Below are positions 3,001 to 41,924 of a stretch of DNA of 45,752 bases, piece by piece. Source of the DNA: Catajapyx aquilonaris (taxonomy: Eukaryota). How positions within the stretch are numbered: the stretch's first letter is position 1; every line of letters starts with the position of its first letter. Location: assembly GCA_000934665.2 (NCBI GenBank), contig JYFJ02000811.1, positions 62,001-107,752 on the forward strand, given 5' to 3'. The position numbers and the translations under genes are program-made. The notes under the pieces are model-generated. The model saw only the letters and a program-made list of their open reading frames with translations. It was not told where the DNA came from and did no database searches.

Positions 3001-4206
3001 ATACGCAACAACAAACTATTATTAACGGTAATTAAATTTGTTTGACATCAGTTGACCCATGTAATCCCATCAATTTACCCCCTTGTGATTGCGCGTAATA
3101 ACTTCATCCCGCTAAAAAATTAACAAAAACTAACATGGTTGAAGTACTACCTGGCTCCCCTGATTTCACTATATCCAAAGCATTAAATTACTTTTTTTTA
3201 GAACCGGTGCAACAGCATTCGAGTGCCGCATATATATAACCCCCTTTTTTTGCCATGTTTTGTCTTTAAATAACAACCGGACCTGAGCCGAATAATAAAT
3301 ATTTCCATCCGACTCCTCCCTACAAAGGGAGTCGGAAAAAAATTTATAAACATCTTATACGCATTTTAAAATTTAAAAGAAATGGGATTCCGTAGATGAC
3401 GACTTAATGCGAAGGTCACTGATTTTAGTTACGTGCGAAGGAGACATCCGGTTGCAATAGCACCAACAATATAATATTTTCCTCGAATGGGATTCAGGCG
3501 GAAAAAATTCTACGCGGAGATGATTTTTGCTTACTCTCCTGGATAAATAATTGCCCTTTATTGCCCGATTAAAAAATCGCGGGACAGGAACGGTTTTAAT
3601 TTATAGCTCTATGGGCCTTTTTTAATGAACAAGGGGGCCAACGGAAAGATCACGCGAGTCGTTGAATTTCCCATTGCAAATAGCTTCGTGCAGGTTGCAA
3701 TGGGCGTAAGTACATACTTTATTTAAAATGAAATAAGGAGCATGTCGTATGTCGCCCTCTTGCATGACCCCTGAGGCCATCACTCCATCAGGTAAGTCTC
3801 TCCCAGGGAAAACAATTGAAATAATGCCAGCCTGGTTTGAAAGTCACGTATTTTTAAGGTGGGCCGACCCCCAACAAAACAGGCTGTGAATTTCCGACTG
3901 GAAATTTTGGCCGGATGAAACCCTCCTTGCGGTACCAACAAGACCTCTTTTCAACCTGCCTATTCAAAATGCTTGCGCTTGAGATCTTCATTTTTTTTCT
4001 AGTTACGTGAGGAGTACTCATAATTCGCTCGCACCCAGACCCAGTCATTATTGTGCCTAAAAAACAGGAGAAATATTCAGAGTAAAATTATTATTCAGGA
4101 TCCAATTGAATGTGTGACCATGACATGTGTAACGGGTTTCGTTCAGGGAGTGACGAGCCGTTTTGAGACACCCTGTACAAAAGAGCCGTTTGTTCATCCT
4201 ACTCAC

Positions 4207-4682
4207 CCAAGTTGGCAGTGAGGGCCTCGAGGTCTTTAGGTTTCCTTTTCCTGGGCCTCCCCTTCTGACCTCCTCCTGAGCCATTGTAGAAGTGCATCTT
4301 GGTCACCTCCCCTGGTCCCCCGAACTGCGACCTGGGGCAGTCCGGCGCCAACGGGAACATGCTGGGGGCTGTCTGCTGGTGCTGCTGGTGCTGTTGGGAT
4401 GTTGGTGGTGCGGACGGGGCAGGGGTCGGGGTGCTGGTAGGGGTGGGCACAGGAACAACAGGGGCCGAGGCTGGAATGGATCCGTTCAGGGCCATCTCGT
4501 AGTGTAACGAGCAGAACACCAGGTGGTCTTGCATTCCGAAGTGGTCTCCCTTGCTCAGGGCTCCGTTGCAAGTGACGCAGGTGAAGCAATGTACGTGAAA
4601 CACGTACTCTTTGGCCCGCATCACTAGCTCGTGGGATGCAATCGCCGCTTGGCAACGGGCGCATCTCTTCAGTCCGAACAAC
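4207..4682 (-). CDS. ap: apterous coding exon 3: LIM domain 2 and basic KGRPRKRK linker; gene continues beyond the left window edge
   Basis: Acceptor tttcttctccacag|G, donor TTG G|GTGAGT, 476 nt (phase 2 to 1). Encodes LFGLKRCARCQAAIASHELVMRAKEYVFHVHCFTCVTCNGALSKGDHFG...FCSLHYE and KGRPRKRKPKDLEALTANL, characteristic of Apterous/Lhx2/9. CG+G restores the Arg codon across the intron. Confidence 0.95.
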
Positions 4683-5631
4683 CTGTGGAGAAGAAACAAT
4701 ATTGTGTGCAAATTTCCAATCCAAACTTCGCATTGTAAAGGCGATAATCCAACTGCATCATATACCAAGCAACAGATGTCCCCCCTATGGGCCACGGTTG
4801 CCCCTCTTCACCTATCCATTATGTAGAAAATCTCAAAGTGAGATTAAGCCGCATCTTAGGCGTCCCCGACACTGTATGAAAAGCCAATTGGGAAAACGGG
4901 AGGCGATATTCAAAATGGACAAGACGGGGGCTCCCCTTTTTGTCCGGAAAAAAAATCAGTTGCCCCCGCGTGTAACAGTGTGTATAAAAAGGACATACCT
5001 TTGGCTGGCTTTCATTTCAAAGGGGGAGTTTCAGTATGAGAACTGGAAGGGGGTGGTTGTGAATGGGGAGGGCTTCCAGCCTCCTCCCAGCGGGGAGGCG
5101 GATTTCCTGCCCCCCGGTGATAAACAATGGCAACTTCTTTTGAAAGCCGCCATTTTCGGCATGATTTCCTACAAATGTTACCGCCACCCCCTGTGGCGAG
5201 CCCACAGAAGGCGAAGAATGGAGGCACCGGAGGCAAGCCTGGATTCCGAGTTACACTGTGAAAGCTACATACTTTGTCCCGAGCTTTCAACGACCAGTGA
5301 AAGCCGCCATCGTGCATGCACGTCAAAAGAAATGTGACCTCTCTTTCGCTATAAATACGACCAGGCTTGAATTAGCCCCCACTCGATTGTGAAAGTGTAT
5401 CCACCCCACTCGACATACCCCCTCTTTCAACAACAAAAAAAAAGATGGGTACAATTCACTTAAGCTGAAAATGAGGTGTCGATAGTCACGGCCCGTCACG
5501 CTAGCCTCATCCCTTTAGAGCGGCGAGGGCATGAAAAATCGCCCTCTCGAGACATGAATACGAACATAGGAGGAAAATTCGCCGTAATTCATATACCAAT
5601 TCCGGAGGCGGTATATTGCGATCAACATAAT

Positions 5632-5788: not shown

Positions 5789-8671
5789 ACAGTGTACTTT
5801 TTCAACTTATTTAACCGAGATATGCCTGCTTTTTGCATTTTTAAAATATTTTTATTTTATGAGCAAATGAAGTTAACTAACATGATAACTAAAAACTAAC
5901 AACCTGTAGTGTTTAGGCATATCTGGGTGAGACAGTATCCAGCTCATTCCTGCATTCAAGTCTCCTGAATGCCACATATCCTGTGTAAAAATGGCGCGAC
6001 ACTTTCCTTACGATTTGGCAAGAAAGAAATAGGGTTTCCAAGTAGGCTTTTTGATTGTTTCTTCATTCCCTGGGCCTCCGGACAGGCGCAGAATACCCGG
6101 AAATCCATTCGACGTGGTTATCGCAAGGTACACGAAGGGAGTCCTCCCCAGACAATGGAAACGGATCACCTACTGAGCTGTTTCAAGCCAGTTTTCCTGC
6201 CTACCGGGGCCGTATATTTTTTTCTTGCCACAGATATTTCGAGCATCTTTTTTCGGCGCGAAAGGCTTTTTCTGATGCGGCGTGACCGAGTAATAAATCT
6301 CTTCGAAGATTACAGTCAGGTTTCAGTGCATCCCACAAACGTTTTCTCTCCACCCATACCACCCACTCCGCATATGGGCATGAGAAAAAAAAACTGGCAG
6401 TTTCCGTAGTTTTATCGCTAAGATATGTCTTCGGTCAGGCGCGGAATATTTACCAGTATTTCTTTAAGTTGTCCCGAAGCGGTACCATCAACTCTGATGA
6501 TCCATGTCCAGACACGCTCTACATTGATCGGACACCCAGCACGTTTCTCATTTCCACATCAGGGTGTGTCCAATCTGTCCATCTTGCAAAGTCCGCGAAA
6601 ATTTTTCATGACGTTACCCAATTTTTGCGCAATAAAGATGTGCAATGTCGCGCCAAGGGGGGTTTCCGCGAACAGATAGATCCGATTCCGTTCTTTTTTT
6701 TCTTTTCCACTTCACGTTTAGTTACTCAAGTGCAACCATCGCGGCAACCTTTCATGCTGCTTAGGCAGGCAAGCAATCGGCAAACACTATGGTGCTGCTT
6801 ACGTCATCTTTTTTTCCTCTCTCTTCATCTGTAACTACAATCCTCAAAGAGGAAAACGTGTCGGTGCGGTATATTCCGACCCGAATTTTTTGTGCCATTA
6901 TCCTCAACAGTGTGGTGACAATTAGGTCATCCGTCCCCAGAAAGGCACAGCAAATCGCAATTTCAGTAGCGAAAAAAAAATTCTTGGAAATTTTTATATA
7001 GGAGTAAACCGTCACTTACACCCAAGACAATTACATAGCAGTCATTAACATTTTGGGTACATTGTGCGAGACAGTTTTTTGTCACCTGCCTGAGTACCTG
7101 AATCCTTGATGTTTTTCCGAGCTTTAATCCCCGATTACCTCCCATCGCGTGTCAGTATTTAGCAATTAAGTAAAAAAGCATTATGAGGTAGCGGCCAACC
7201 TTTTGTAAACATGGTTGGGCCCGGGACCGGTTTTGTCACCTCCCACTTAATTACAGCCTTTGTACGTTACTAACCTAGAGTGCTTGTCACTTTTCTATCT
7301 AGCCACCCACCCCTCTTATGTGAGGCCATAAGTTCATAAGTGTTTAGGCGTTGACGGTTGATTACGATAATTAGAGTGGGGAGGCTACCGATTCGCCTGG
7401 AGGAATTATTAACCAGCCGTTTCCGCAAAGTAAGGTGTTGTCAGATGGATTTTAAAACCTCCGGTGATGACTGCTGATGCATTAAACATGGGTATACCGC
7501 CGCCCCTGCTGTCAATGTTATCAGCCGGAGATATTCCGGAGGGGCGCCATAACCTATCAATTATTAGTATGGGGAGACGAGAGGTTCGTTACGTGGTCAT
7601 CAACAAGTTTGATTGTTGCTTACATATTTTATAACGACGCAGGTTCATTCATTTTTAAAGGGCAGTGTACGGGAAAGATAGCTGTTTTTCTAGATATACT
7701 GCTTTCATAAGCGCACTAATTTGGCCAGTGTACTGCCATCATGTTGGCATCATATTCATTTGAAAGTCGCGCAGTATTTAGATTAAAGCCTGAATTTGGA
7801 TAATAAGTAGGCCTATACATATACCTTGATGTACTATGAAATTAGACATTTTAAATGCGGTACACATAGTGGCGCTGGGAAATATGGAATGCTGGCAAAA
7901 ATTATAAATTCCTTAAAATTAACTTAGACTGCGTATCATAATATGGAAAGTTATAAATTTGGTTGAAAAATTAGTACGGATATTATCTGTCATTGTCTGA
8001 TGAATATGTCCAAAATCTGTTTTCTGACTCACCAAAACATAATTATATCATTAGTATCAAAATGTTGAAATTGGCTTAACTCTGTGACAATGTGTAACAG
8101 ATTAACACCTGCATTAATAGACACAATTAGCATAACGACTCTGGGAAAAATTAACGCTAAGAACGCAATCAGTAAAATATTGTGTGTATAGTATACACTA
8201 CAGAAAATGATTTCATACTACATCGGTGTTTACGCGTGTTTACAAATAGGTCTACAATAATCAAGATTTTGCTTCAAAAAATCATTAAAACCATTTTGAC
8301 TTTTTCATATGTGATTAAAAATATAATATGCCTGCTGTGTATTTGAGTGGTCTGAAATGCAGGCCATCATCACAATGCATTAGGCTATATTTATTAGGTT
8401 ATTATTTTGATGTGCGGCTCTGAAACTCAATTCCATTGTTTTCTCACATTGCACAACCTCAAGTCCAGTCATGATATATGAATACACCAGCATTTAGATT
8501 TTAGAGAATGTTATTAATTTTCCCATCAATTATAGTGCACAACGAATAAATCCTGGTTGGTTCATCTACTCTTGAGTGGCGCAACTCAGATTCATAGGAG
8601 ACAACCGGTTGAAATCAGAGTATATAGGAAGGAACACTGATTCACACGCACGCAAAAGCACGTAATCTTAC

Positions 8672-9399
8672 CGGTAGTAGTCCTCCTTGCAGTAGATGCT
8701 ACCATCCCTTGCAAAGCAGGTACCTTCTGTCTCTAAGAGCATGTTGCACTGACAGCACTTGAGGCAAGAGCTGTGCCATCTCTGGTCCACTGCCATCAGG
8801 TAGAACCTGTCCACAATTTTGTCCCCGCAACCTGCACAGACCACTCCCGTCGCCCCACCGGCACTTGCAGCGTCCTCAGAAGCAGACGGACTCTCTCCGC
8901 TCTTACTGTTGGCGCCCGCAACTTCACCGACGCCACCGCCAGGAGCGCCACCTGCGACAGCCTCCATTTTGTTGCTGCTGCACGTGGACGACGGAGGCGA
9001 CACCACTCTTTGCGACGTCGGCGTCATCGACGACGGCGTCATGGGCTTGTGCGACGGGGACGTCGAAGGGTTGCCGCATGAAGTCAACGACGACGGTAAG
9101 GGAGGCGAGAGAGACGAGCTGGCGTGGTACTCGAACCCGACCTTTGGAGCACCTCCGTGGTGACCTCCCGGGTCGCCTTCTCCTTCGACGCCGGTGCAGT
9201 ATGAGGCAGGAGGCATCGGAGGGTACCAGGGCGCGCCGGGACCCATCATGAAACCGGTACCGCACCGCTCGAAGCAGCGGCTGCCTTCTGGGTCTCCGCT
9301 CGGGTGGTGGTGATGGTGATGGTGAGCCGACGGTGCGCTGGGTGACGGGGCGTGTGGCACAAGACGCTCCTGGACTGGCCCCCAGCGGTCGAACTGTTG
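8672..9399 (-). CDS. ap: apterous coding exon 2: His/Pro/Ser-rich N-terminal region and LIM domain 1
   Basis: Acceptor ttgttgacag|CAA, donor TAC TAC CG|GTAAGA, 728 nt (phase 0 to 2). Encodes CAGCGDKIVDRFYLMAVDQRWHSSCLKCCQCNMLLETEGTCFARDGSIYCKEDYYR, a canonical Lhx2/9-type LIM1. Confidence 0.95.
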
Positions 9400-10306
9400 C
9401 TGTCAACAACATAAATAATAATTTCGACTCAGTATTATCGCCATAATTATCTTCACCTTATATTGTGTCAGAAAATAAGCAACATCCCACATCAGCGAGT
9501 GACCTATTCTTAAACCCATGTTGCATCACAATCGTGACGTCACTTATCCCGTAATAACAACTTATACGCCCTTAATTTTTATCGCATTATAAAAATCACA
9601 GGTTCCCTCCGTCACGTGGTGCGTCATAAAGAGCGCAAGACATCAGGATACATGTCAGGCGTGCCGCAAACCATTAGCAGAACGGGTCAGTCCAGCCCAG
9701 GCGACGATCGCTTAATAACCAAAAAGGATAATTACGACTAATGAAATAGCAAGGTCTTCGTTCTGCATTTCACGCGCAAGCCTTTGCCAACTCAATTTGT
9801 GTGGGAAGAAGACTCTCATTATACCTCCACCGCCGTGCTTAACAATTTTTGCGATCATTACTATTAATTTTTTGAAATGCAAGAGTAGGAGGAGCCATTA
9901 GACGCCCGAGTCATACATGCTCCTAGACACATGAATTACGAATTAAATGCTTCTGGAGCAGGTCGCACCTCTACATGTGTCTGTGGGAACACTTCGCAAC
10001 ACTAGAGTTGTTTTCACGTATCGCAGGTGGAAATCTTCTCTCTTTTTTTCCTTCAGGAGGATGGACCCTTCTCTATAGCAATTTGTCTCGCCTTATCGTG
10101 GGGTTTGGGGGGCGCAACATCGACCCCGAGGTCACCTTGCTAACATGCGGTTACTTCCGAGCCTATTGCAAGGCTGTCCATTCACGCTTTGTATGTATCG
10201 AAAGCACAAATTGCTGGGTTCGAACCCGCCACTTTTGCAGGACTGTGGCGGAAGTGGTGGTAAGGCTTTCTTAAAGCTATTAAAAATATTTGTGGTTACA
10301 GCGCAC

Positions 10307-13764: not shown

Positions 13765-13830
<66 letters not shown>
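13765..13830. repeat. (ATT)n microsatellite
   Basis: 22 triplets, two of them ATC. Confidence 0.97.
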
Positions 13831-14714
13831 GCAATGGAGTACCGTTGAGTAAATGGAGTTAATTTACGTTGGCTGTATAAATGTTGGTAATTGATGCAAG
13901 TTGTGTGTTGATTTTGAAACACTCCATCTGGGCACAGTAATTGGCGGGATAATTTTCCATTAATGGGGCAGGTAACAAGGGAGAAGCATCGGCAAATAAC
14001 GCCAAAAGGTTCGAAAACCAGGCTGCATTTTTGTGTCATAAAAAGTGATACCGGTACCCAATTACGAACGATCGACAAATGTTTACGGTTTTATTGGGTT
14101 GGCAATTTGGTTTGATATGTCCTGCCAAGCGCAATTTGTTCCATATCTGCGGCAAACGGGGCTATCTCTCGGACATCATCACAGAGATGGAAAAAAAAAG
14201 TTTTGTTTTGAATGAAATGCAAAAAAAAGGAACCATATTATCGGTTCGTGCATCCAAACTTGTTTTGCCTTTCGGTCCGATATGTGGCAAGAAGCCATGG
14301 AGAGGAGAGGTTGTTTTTTTTTATTCGTTTGGTACTTTCCGAGCTGCAGTGAATGACCTCAAGTACAAACTGGAGAGATCTCACTCACCAAAATGAGGTC
14401 GTGCCTAGAAATGCTCAAAATTTTTGTCGTTTTGTTCCCATCCTCCAGCTATGTTCGCACTAGACTCATATCCGGTTGGAAGTTGCACAAAAAATATATA
14501 TAGGAATTGGAACGACGCATTCTAAATCAGCCCAAAGCTATATCTAGGAGCATGTCGAATCTGCTAATTAAGTAGATATGCATGTAACATGGAGCAAGCA
14601 TCAAAAAATTCGAAAAACTTTAGCATCACATTTTTTTAAAAACCGAAATGCGAAATGCATTGAATTATAGGCAAAAATCCGCTCGCAAAATTATTAATTT
14701 TTCCAAGAAGATTT

Positions 14715-37092: not shown

Positions 37093-37108
37093 TGAATGAA
37101 TGAATGAA

Positions 37109-37139
<31 letters not shown>

Positions 37140-37142
37140 ATA
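37093..37142. repeat. Compound (TGAA)n(TAAA)n microsatellite
   Basis: Direct inspection. Confidence 0.95.
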
Positions 37143-40321: not shown

Positions 40322-40553
40322 TTTTGAGGGTTATCACCTTCTTCTCCCGAATCCTTCAGTTGTAGATGGTTACACGGTAAAAAATTTCCTTCAACGTTAA
40401 ATTTGTCCTTACCTCCCAGCACCATCTATACAGAATGTTCCTGTTGTGAAGATGGGTATGCTTTTTACGTGTCAAATAATAACTTACAATTAAATTATTG
40501 AGCTCATGTGCAACTAACAATAAGGAATGAATGTTACACAATTACGAGAAATA

Positions 40554-40876: not shown

Positions 40877-41004
40877 TCAAGAGCTGCGCATTCTTCCTTG
40901 GTTGCACGGTTGCTGAAAGAACATTAAACAGAATCCTCTGTTCTGATCATCTCCCATTTCGTTGTCATCTGTGTGGTAGTACACGCGAAACGGTTTGACG
41001 TAAC
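40877..41004 (-). CDS. Secreted CUB-domain protein, duplicated alternative terminal coding exon 8b (distal; predicted 443-aa isoform)
   Basis: Long polypyrimidine tract, acceptor ctttctaaag|GT (phase 1), 128 nt to TGA. SYVKPFRVYYHTDDNEMGDDQNRGFCLMFFQQPCNQGRMRSS*, 23/34 aa identical to exon 8a with no gaps. Confidence 0.85.
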
Positions 41005-41243
41005 CTTTAGAAAGAGAGAAAGAAAAGAAAGCAAAGCAACGTAACTACTCTTCCTGCAAAAATGCATCCAAATAAATATGCAATAATGCCCAAGAAGGTT
41101 ATGAAAACAAATAATAAATATGGTTACAAAAAAATCGACATCTTCTCAGGGAGGATCCGGTGTGAGTTGTTGGAAAAGTATATACCTCTCCAGGTATCTT
41201 GTAGTTGGTACAGTATCATACACAAGTGTCTTGCGTGTGAGTC

Positions 41244-41365
41244 TTAGCCACCCATGCCGGATGTGCAAGGTTGTTGGATGTACTGCAGGCAGAAGCCCCT
41301 GTTTCCAGAGTCGTTGTTCTCGTTGGCGTCCGTGTGGTAGTATATGTAGAATGGCTTCACGTTGC
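41244..41365 (-). CDS. Secreted CUB-domain protein, terminal coding exon 8a (proximal; predicted 441-aa isoform)
   Basis: Acceptor actctgcttcag|GC (phase 1), 122 nt to TAA. SNVKPFYIYYHTDANENNDSGNRGFCLQYIQQPCTSGMGG* carries the family C-terminal PF...HTD..E....NRGFCL.Y.QQPC motif. Confidence 0.9.
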
Positions 41366-41690
41366 CTGAAGCAGAGTAGCCATCTGAGTTTCATGCTTGT
41401 CAACATTAGTGGTGGTGTTGTGCTATTTGACTTGTCAGTGTCGGTTGTCGTCAAGTGTCGCAAGAGTGTCCAGGCATGCTCTTAACCTTAATATCCAAGC
41501 CGGACTCAAAAGCCTTCAAAATATATGTAGCGTTGAGTCACATGCAGGCCAGTAAGCTATACCCATGACTACCACCGCAGAACAAAGTCACACTACACTC
41601 GGTTCTAGGTCAGAAGAGCAGCACAATTTGCATATAGCACTTGTCACCTTTCTCATGCCCATCTCCGCATAAAAAAGCAAAATTACTCAC

Positions 41691-41924
41691 TGAAAACGGG
41701 CGCCGCTTGATTGGATGTCTCACTGTTGAAAGTGTCTCCGCAGATTCTGTCCTGACATATGGAGTTGGCCGCCTGTTGCAACCTTCCAGTGTTGGTGGCG
41801 CAAGGGATGTTGATCCAGTCGGTTTGGCAGCTGGTTGGCCCCACCTGGGCACCCACGGGGCTGCCCTGGTTGCCCGTCAAGGAGAAGGCTCTTGAACGCT
41901 GGTTCGGTGATCCAGGGACTTGGG
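41691..41924 (-). CDS. Secreted CUB-domain protein, coding exon 7
   Basis: Acceptor gtctgtag|CC, donor TTC A|GTGAGT, 234 nt. AFSLTG...SCQTDWINIPC...DRICGDTFN...APVF. Confidence 0.9.

Follow-up and report, generated by a model that had tools for sequence, protein, structure and literature searches.

A gene on the minus strand of the 45,752-nt stretch of DNA analyzed here (the window) encodes a predicted secreted protein with a small Cys-rich module followed by two CUB domains, and its last coding exon stands in two tandem copies, 8a and 8b. We think it probable that this is a working two-ended gene in which both copies are used as alternatives. The last coding exon would have been duplicated in tandem long ago and both copies kept. 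The phase-1 donor at 41691 would then be joined either to a proximal acceptor at 41366/41365 (8a) or to a distal one at 41005/41004 (8b); an mRNA of the first kind would carry 8b silently within a 3'UTR of about 700 nt, and an mRNA of the second kind would lack 8a. Because each copy has its own stop codon, the two protein ends would be mutually exclusive without any special device. We infer from the sequence that both acceptors are probably used in the species of the window.

The two-CUB gene and its duplicated last exon

Splice sites were read directly from the DNA, giving the following features.

43295-43143, minus strand: exon 1; joined frame open
43068-42957, minus strand: exon 2; joined frame open
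42882-42712, minus strand: exon 3; joined frame open
42644-42384, minus strand: exon 4; joined frame open
42322-42197, minus strand: exon 5; joined frame open
42142-41978, minus strand: exon 6; joined frame open
41924-41691, minus strand: exon 7, the last constitutive exon; ends in phase 1, one base into a codon; donor GTGAGT at 41690-41685
41690-41366, minus strand: intron 7 up to the proximal acceptor; 325 nt, 45% GC
41365-41244, minus strand: coding part of exon 8a; acceptor ...ctgcttcAG; 40 codons plus stop TAA at 41246-41244; GC3 31/40
41243-41005, minus strand: spacer between 8a and 8b; 239 nt, 36% GC
41186/41185, minus strand: possible weak donor GAGAG/GTATAT in the spacer, read directly
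41040-41007, minus strand: pyrimidine-rich tract ahead of 8b; 34 nt, five G, no A
41006-41005, minus strand: acceptor AG of 8b (aAG), read directly
41004-40877, minus strand: coding part of exon 8b; 42 codons plus stop TGA at 40879-40877; GC3 23/42
40559-40554, minus strand: AATAAA, the first canonical poly(A) signal 3' of either stop, about 320 nt past the 8b stop
43295-40877, minus strand: whole coding span of the two-CUB gene; 8 exons, all introns GT-AG

Introns 1-6 measure 53-74 nt, all introns after exon 1 are phase 1, and the seven donors of the gene read GTGCGT, GTGAGT (three times), GTACGT (twice), and GTTTGT. Exons 1-7 joined to 8a or to 8b predict products of 447 and 449 aa, respectively, in which a signal-peptide-like start precedes the Cys-rich module and the CUB domains.

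The first-pass annotation had described two homologous last exons after the 41691 donor, each with a phase-1 AG acceptor and its own stop, and direct reading bears this out, together with the peptides that it had written for them. Its counts were reproduced as well: across 34 aligned codons the peptides share 23 residues with no indels, and 15 of those 23 residues are encoded by different codons. Nucleotide identity over the same codons is 65/102 (64%). As neighboring exons, 8a and 8b are homologous, have coding parts of 122 and 128 nt, and share phase 1 and an AG acceptor. When each isoform was compared by tblastn with the whole 45.7-kb window, the other copy was recovered at E values of 7e-11 and 1e-10; the extra matches all had E values of at least 0.9, which upholds the claim that the last exon is the only one of the gene with a second copy in the window. 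A repeat search also detects the pair (48 nt, 73%, spacing 361). Chance similarity between 8a and 8b is ruled out by the E value of 7e-11, and an assembly duplication is ruled out by a nucleotide identity of merely 64%.

Two additional AG dinucleotides lie near the acceptors. One, in frame at 41385-41384, is 18 nt 5' of the 8a acceptor, and its use would add six residues before 8a. The homologous position in all relatives argues for 41366/41365 as the real 8a acceptor. The other is an acceptor-like tttttgcAG at 41054-41060 (minus strand), 49 nt upstream of the 8b acceptor; entry there in phase 1 leads to a stop after about 15 codons. A protein made from this site would lack the end of CUB2, and the site may be a decoy or nonproductive. 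Elsewhere in the window, long open frames at 4199-4807 and 8668-9402 (minus strand) contain a basic stretch and two Cys/His patterns resembling those of LIM domains; they may be exons of a LIM-homeobox transcription factor gene, with the basic stretch possibly beginning the homeodomain. Simple repeats occur at about 13790-13850, where the sequence translates as poly-Ile, and at 37107-37140, as (AATA)n.

The protein belongs to a family that is widespread in arthropods. Searching with the exon-4 peptide returned 33 proteins at E values of 0.001 or below among 43 candidates, with identities of up to 72%. All are arthropod proteins named "CUB domain-containing" or uncharacterized, from Collembola, thrips, cockroach, termite, bugs, moths, tephritid flies, barnacle, decapods, and mantis shrimp, and most carry a precomputed PF26080 assignment. 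Full-length identity to the window protein is 57-60% in Collembola (over about 390-440 residues), 54-61% in insects, and 49-54% in crustaceans. On these identities the source is an arthropod that lacks close kin in the protein database. By this full-length similarity and a shared cysteine pattern the window protein falls in the PF26080 family, although PF26080 was not among the matches in our Pfam scans of the homologs. With the CUB profile PF00431, run on the separate exon pieces, the exon-4 open reading frame by itself scored 18.7 bits (E value of 0.0023), less than the cutoff of 21.4, and none of the remaining pieces matched. Among full-length homologs, P0001 (26.1 bits) and P0010 (21.8 bits) passed and P0011 gave no match.

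The fold was assessed on a homolog, the collembolan protein P0001, which is 57% identical to the window protein. Its AlphaFold model, built from a 29-row alignment, has a mean pLDDT of 73 that is high over residues 120-466, and consists of a small Cys-rich module and two beta-sandwich domains. Foldseek searches with the model retrieved PCPE-1, neuropilin a1a2, MASP, and C1r/C1s at E values of 1e-9 to 1e-7; the predicted structure of the homolog is that of a CUB beta-sandwich. Residues homologous to the last exon start at S429 of P0001 and comprise strands 434-439 and 452-461, their connecting loop, and the last two cysteines. On this model, CUB2 owes its final two beta-strands and their connecting loop to the last exon, which also encodes two cysteines and the C-terminal tail. 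Such an exon would be indispensable for CUB2, so at least one copy must be used.

The two isoforms would both keep the fold and would differ in the hairpin loop (DANENNDSG in 8a versus DDNEMGDDQ in 8b), in several strand residues, and in the tail (TSGMGG versus NQGRMRSS). We take the last CUB loop to carry part of the Ca2+/ligand-binding face, and here it aligns with a conserved H-T-D...E motif. A swapped loop may change binding specificity. The isoform difference as a whole presumably alters binding or processing.

Database searches with the last-exon peptides were sparse. The 8a peptide matched only two distant insect proteins, at 59-60% identity, and in the same protein database 8b had no candidate sharing three words. 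That database held no same-species or close-relative protein carrying either junction. The protein clusters of 10 homologs, as listed, comprised orthologs, paralogs, and models of differing length, and an alignment of 38 homolog C-termini held no second C-terminal type within a species. In the P0008 cluster, two neighboring gene models of Ranatra chinensis (004394 and 004395) lie on the same contig and fall in one 90% cluster; there the whole gene, not one exon, seems to have been tandemly duplicated. A literature search found no published description of this CUB family, which is conserved across hexapods and crustaceans, and, among the papers listed, nothing relevant that linked a CUB domain with a duplicated alternative last exon.

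Age of the duplication and constraint on the copies

An old duplication followed by purifying selection on both copies had been proposed from the sequence, and the divergence between 8a and 8b agrees with it. By the Nei-Gojobori method, synonymous sites are saturated (18.8 differences at 17.7 sites, with no finite dS). Nonsynonymous sites show 18.2 differences at 84.3 sites (pN of 0.215, dN of 0.25), a within-pair comparison that is blind to recent loss of function in one copy. Third codon positions are identical in 14 of 34 codons, compared with 51 of 68 first and second positions. Within the 23 shared residues, all five fourfold sites and 9 of 17 twofold sites differ. The 60 nt 5' of the two acceptors match at 19 positions, which is the random level. 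A simple model puts the neutral distance between the copies at roughly 1.25 or more substitutions per site (delta lnL of 2.07 at 1.25).

How long could one copy have drifted and still look as it does? Neutral decay was simulated by evolving one copy from the other through substitutions only, with 20000 runs per setting, and counting the runs that kept at least 23/34 identity and no stop. No more than 0.0001 of runs did so at 0.5 substitutions per site; the fraction was 0.015-0.024 at 0.3 and 0.17-0.22 at 0.2. When 8a and 8b are aligned with the 38 homolog C-termini, both have all 14 residues of the last exon that are invariant in the family, as defined on 14 full-length homologs. Of the nearly invariant sites, a single one is altered: 8b has F in place of Y, as tephritid flies do. 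A few derived residues set each copy apart: at a position occupied by R in nearly all hexapod sequences, 8a carries Y, and a strand of 8b reads LMFF versus LNY[VI] in the family.

Taken together, the saturated synonymous sites, a dN near 0.25, the retained invariant residues, and the simulation strongly support the view that both copies were constrained for most of the time since the duplication. The simulation suggests that either copy can have spent about 0.2-0.3 substitutions per site in a neutral state, and the retention of invariant residues points to less. The first-pass annotation had also held that neither copy is decayed. That statement stands as regards long decay, which the simulation and the invariant residues speak against, but a recent loss in one copy is compatible with the data.

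Base composition distinguishes the two copies. GC3 is 291/407 in exons 1-7 and similar in 8a (31/40) but lower in 8b (23/42; Fisher P = 0.033 versus exons 1-7), and the flanks are 32-36% GC. The GC3 of 8b, lower than in the rest of the gene, hints that it may be the minor or less constrained form; 8a would be the likelier major form.

The last exon in related loci

An alignment of 14 homologs, used to scan metagenome contigs, yielded 62 loci, and tblastn with the last-exon peptides found the last exon in 38 of them. The 36 loci with a complete copy were typed by loop length, measured from the Lys/Arg of the KPF motif to the final Cys. Twenty-two are crustacean-type (34-38 residues), 11 are insect-type (32 residues), and 3 are Collembola-type (31 residues, the same as in 8a and 8b).

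Eleven loci, all crustacean-type when L002 is counted, hold two to four tandem copies of the last exon: four in L033, three each in L001 and L061, and two each in L002, L034, L035, L038, L039, L055, L059, and L060. L038, L039, and L061 are near identical, so the number of independent multicopy loci is below 11. Copies in the crustacean-type loci are spaced 224-1901 nt apart. The phase-1 acceptor position is shared by all 21 copies in the nine genomic multicopy loci: each has an AG exactly two bases ahead of the codon that corresponds to residue 2 of 8a and 8b, with a pyrimidine-rich stretch before it. All 21 also have their own stop, 3-10 codons past the final Cys.

Selection on each exon between species, which had been put forward as a check, was measured in relatives by comparing L034 with L038, and was purifying for both copies. 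Copy 1 gave a pS of 0.55 and a pN of 0.063 (pN/pS of about 0.11), and copy 2 gave a pS of 0.34 and a pN of 0.017 (about 0.05). In blastn comparisons of these two loci the exons align, but the spacer between the copies does not. Several loci share copy-specific signatures, [AS]LEG in first copies and GAEG in second copies, which points to an old duplication in the crustacean-type clade.

The loci nearest to the window, by last-exon tree and by loop length, are the three Collembola-type ones, and these hold a single copy. Among the matches listed at E values of up to 5, tblastn gave only noise as a second last-exon copy in Collembola-type and insect-type loci, L007 and L018 included, and in two of the three Collembola-type loci the sequence continues for more than 3 kb downstream.

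A maximum-likelihood tree of 55 distinct last-exon peptides, which at 37 columns is weakly resolved, groups 8a and 8b with all Collembola sequences (support 93/77) and places the crustacean-type copies elsewhere. The branch leading to 8b is longer (0.38) than that leading to 8a (0.21). Since the crustacean-type copies fall outside the group of 8a and 8b, the duplication in the window is most simply an independent event. A broader proposal, which we advance tentatively and rate at somewhat below an even chance, is that the last exon is a recurrent duplication hot spot, duplicated independently in hexapod-like and (earlier and repeatedly) in crustacean-type lineages. In a convergent splicing switch, it would then serve as an interchangeable C-terminal module, by which the last CUB2 hairpin is swapped together with a C-terminal processing signal.

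The processing signal refers to the tails. Thirty-two of 36 crustacean-type copies, a count that includes near-identical loci, end in Gly or Gly plus Lys/Arg only (e.g., ...STG, ...TGK, ...GGRR, and ...VGRRRRR). Such endings resemble a C-terminal amidation or carboxypeptidase signal. Copies of one locus often differ in the Gly ending. A terminal Gly is present in 8a of the window but absent from 8b and from the tails of insects and Collembola.

Two of the multicopy contigs are mRNA-like. In L002, an intronless coding sequence runs into copy 1 and its stop, followed by about 200 nt, a retained ...ctttcAG, and copy 2, which is truncated by the contig end. This contig shows that transcripts using the proximal copy can continue through the distal copy, at least as its sequence reads. 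Between the two good copies (L002:1600-1680) lies a truncated, deleted, and clearly decayed last-exon remnant, which shows what a dead copy looks like in the CUB family. In L001, an intronless 585-residue open reading frame ends in copy 1 and two more copies follow (L001:1776-2523). Their frames and stops are intact, but they have CG and AA at the position of the conserved AG; an in-phase AG lies 12 nt 5' of copy 2 and none lies 5' of copy 3. Either these distal copies were joined by splicing or they are unusable as they stand, and by this sequence not every distal copy in the family appears obviously spliceable. L001 and L002 both use copy 1, and no contig of any species had exon 7 joined to a distal copy.

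A third transcript-like contig, L004 (positions 390-1060), concerns another part of the gene. It retains two introns and has a tandem pair of homologous internal exons, which correspond to window residues of about 191-232 in the second half of CUB1. Both are preceded by an acceptor; copy A has a retained GT donor, and copy B continues unspliced into the downstream exons. The pair looks like a candidate for internal mutually exclusive exons, and isoform tblastn found no second copy of this CUB1 exon in the window.

Proposed choice of the last exon and comparison with known systems

The original proposal was a mutually exclusive last-exon switch. Architecture, constraint, and the same layout in relatives favor it, and we would recast it as a choice between nested 3' splice sites with a shared 3' end. 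The gene strand has neither AATAAA nor ATTAAA between the 8a stop and the 8b acceptor. Because no canonical poly(A) signal separates the copies and L002 carries unspliced copy 2 in its 3'UTR, we read the locus as a single terminal region in which two 3' splice sites are nested ahead of a shared 3' end. On these grounds, nested 3' splice-site choice appears more likely than two terminal exons with their own poly(A) sites, and the AATAAA at 40559-40554 is likely the shared 3' end signal.

Perhaps just one copy, most probably 8a, is in use today, and the other, a working alternative over most of its past, was recently silenced and, while still intact, is now 3'UTR or downstream DNA? We regard this as unlikely but as deserving serious weight. 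The lower GC3 of 8b than of exons 1-7 (P of 0.03) is what drift toward the GC content of the flanks would produce, yet the simulation permits just a short neutral period. The 8b acceptor reads AAG, and an A at acceptor position -3 is the rarer choice; even so, the acceptor has the exact phase, and the 34-nt tract without A, hence without AG, between a plausible branch point and this acceptor is intact. Although its strand is more derived and its tree branch longer, 8b keeps the 14 invariant residues and the stop position. That exon 7 is joined to the first copy in both mRNA-like contigs, and that a partial copy has decayed in L002, so that copies do die in this family, fits silencing, but in relatives both copies are under purifying selection across species.

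Distinct from silencing is serial inclusion, which we consider improbable. Here 8a would be an internal stop-containing exon spliced to 8b (for example, from the donor at 41186/41185), transcripts would read 7-8a-8b or 7-8b, and skipping of 8a would switch the end. A GT with a purine-rich exon end is present in the spacer of the window, but GTATAT is unlike all seven real donors of the gene. L001 has three copies in series, the two distal ones without an adjacent AG, as if their acceptors had been spliced out; L002, however, is unspliced, with its acceptor retained. At the protein level the outcome would be the same as with nested splice sites. It is very improbable that 8b is foreign to the gene, as a recently copied paralog fragment or an assembly artifact. 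What speaks for this is no more than its general possibility; 8b lies 240 nt past a homologous exon with which it shares strand and phase, like the copies of 11 related loci, and groups with 8a in the same Collembola-type part of the tree. The window holds no other paralog exon, and 64% nucleotide identity does not fit a collapsed or duplicated assembly. Hence, a working gene with two alternative last exons is the reading that we favor.

If both ends are used, one gene gives two secreted CUB proteins that differ solely in the tail and one surface hairpin, and this would offer a compact natural experiment to learn which part of the CUB domain sets specificity. For annotation, the rule would be to seek extra phase-1 terminal exons 3' of the annotated stop in this family, which offers a system where terminal-exon choice may have evolved more than once.

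The mechanism itself is already known, with established cases in Drosophila in which exons duplicated in tandem provide alternative 3' ends. The genes pip (pipe), PGRP-LC, and CG42235 have tandemly duplicated alternative 3' terminal exons or cassettes (PMC9013439, PMC6191721). Like the window gene, they place homologous 3' coding units, arisen by tandem duplication, in tandem past a common exon, and one unit is chosen per transcript, so that the same body receives alternative C-terminal parts. Their cassettes comprise 2-8 exons or whole domains in up to 10 copies; in the window gene each unit is a single exon of 122-128 nt that replaces just the last domain hairpin, the copies are 361 nt apart, and one poly(A) site is probably shared. 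PMC6191721 ascribes the choice in PGRP-LC, CG42235, and pip to competing intronic RNA pairings. We found no docking/selector elements of the PGRP-LC type in the window. Inverted repeats of 10-20 nt with 75-100% complementarity occurred between positions 40500 and 41700 at chance level, and no convincing one linked intron 7 with the spacer.

Internal mutually exclusive exons (Dscam1, Mhc, and human sets) resemble 8a and 8b in tandem origin, length class, phase, homology, and the substitution of a structural element within a fold. Internal pairs need a bar on double inclusion, whereas the copies in the window each end in a stop, and the first one spliced sets the end. The human survey set terminal-exon candidates apart as possibly chosen by polyadenylation (PMC5740500).

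The crustacean-type members of the family have the same exon duplicated, with the same phase-1 acceptor position and a stop for each copy, but unlike the window gene they have two to four copies, a loop longer by 3-7 residues, and tails of Gly or Gly plus basic residues. Solved tandem-CUB structures (PCPE-1 CUB1-CUB2, neuropilin a1a2, and MASP/C1r/C1s) are matched by the P0001 model at a sequence identity of 10-18%, and the family is set apart from them by an N-terminal Cys-rich module of its own and by an additional insertion within CUB2.
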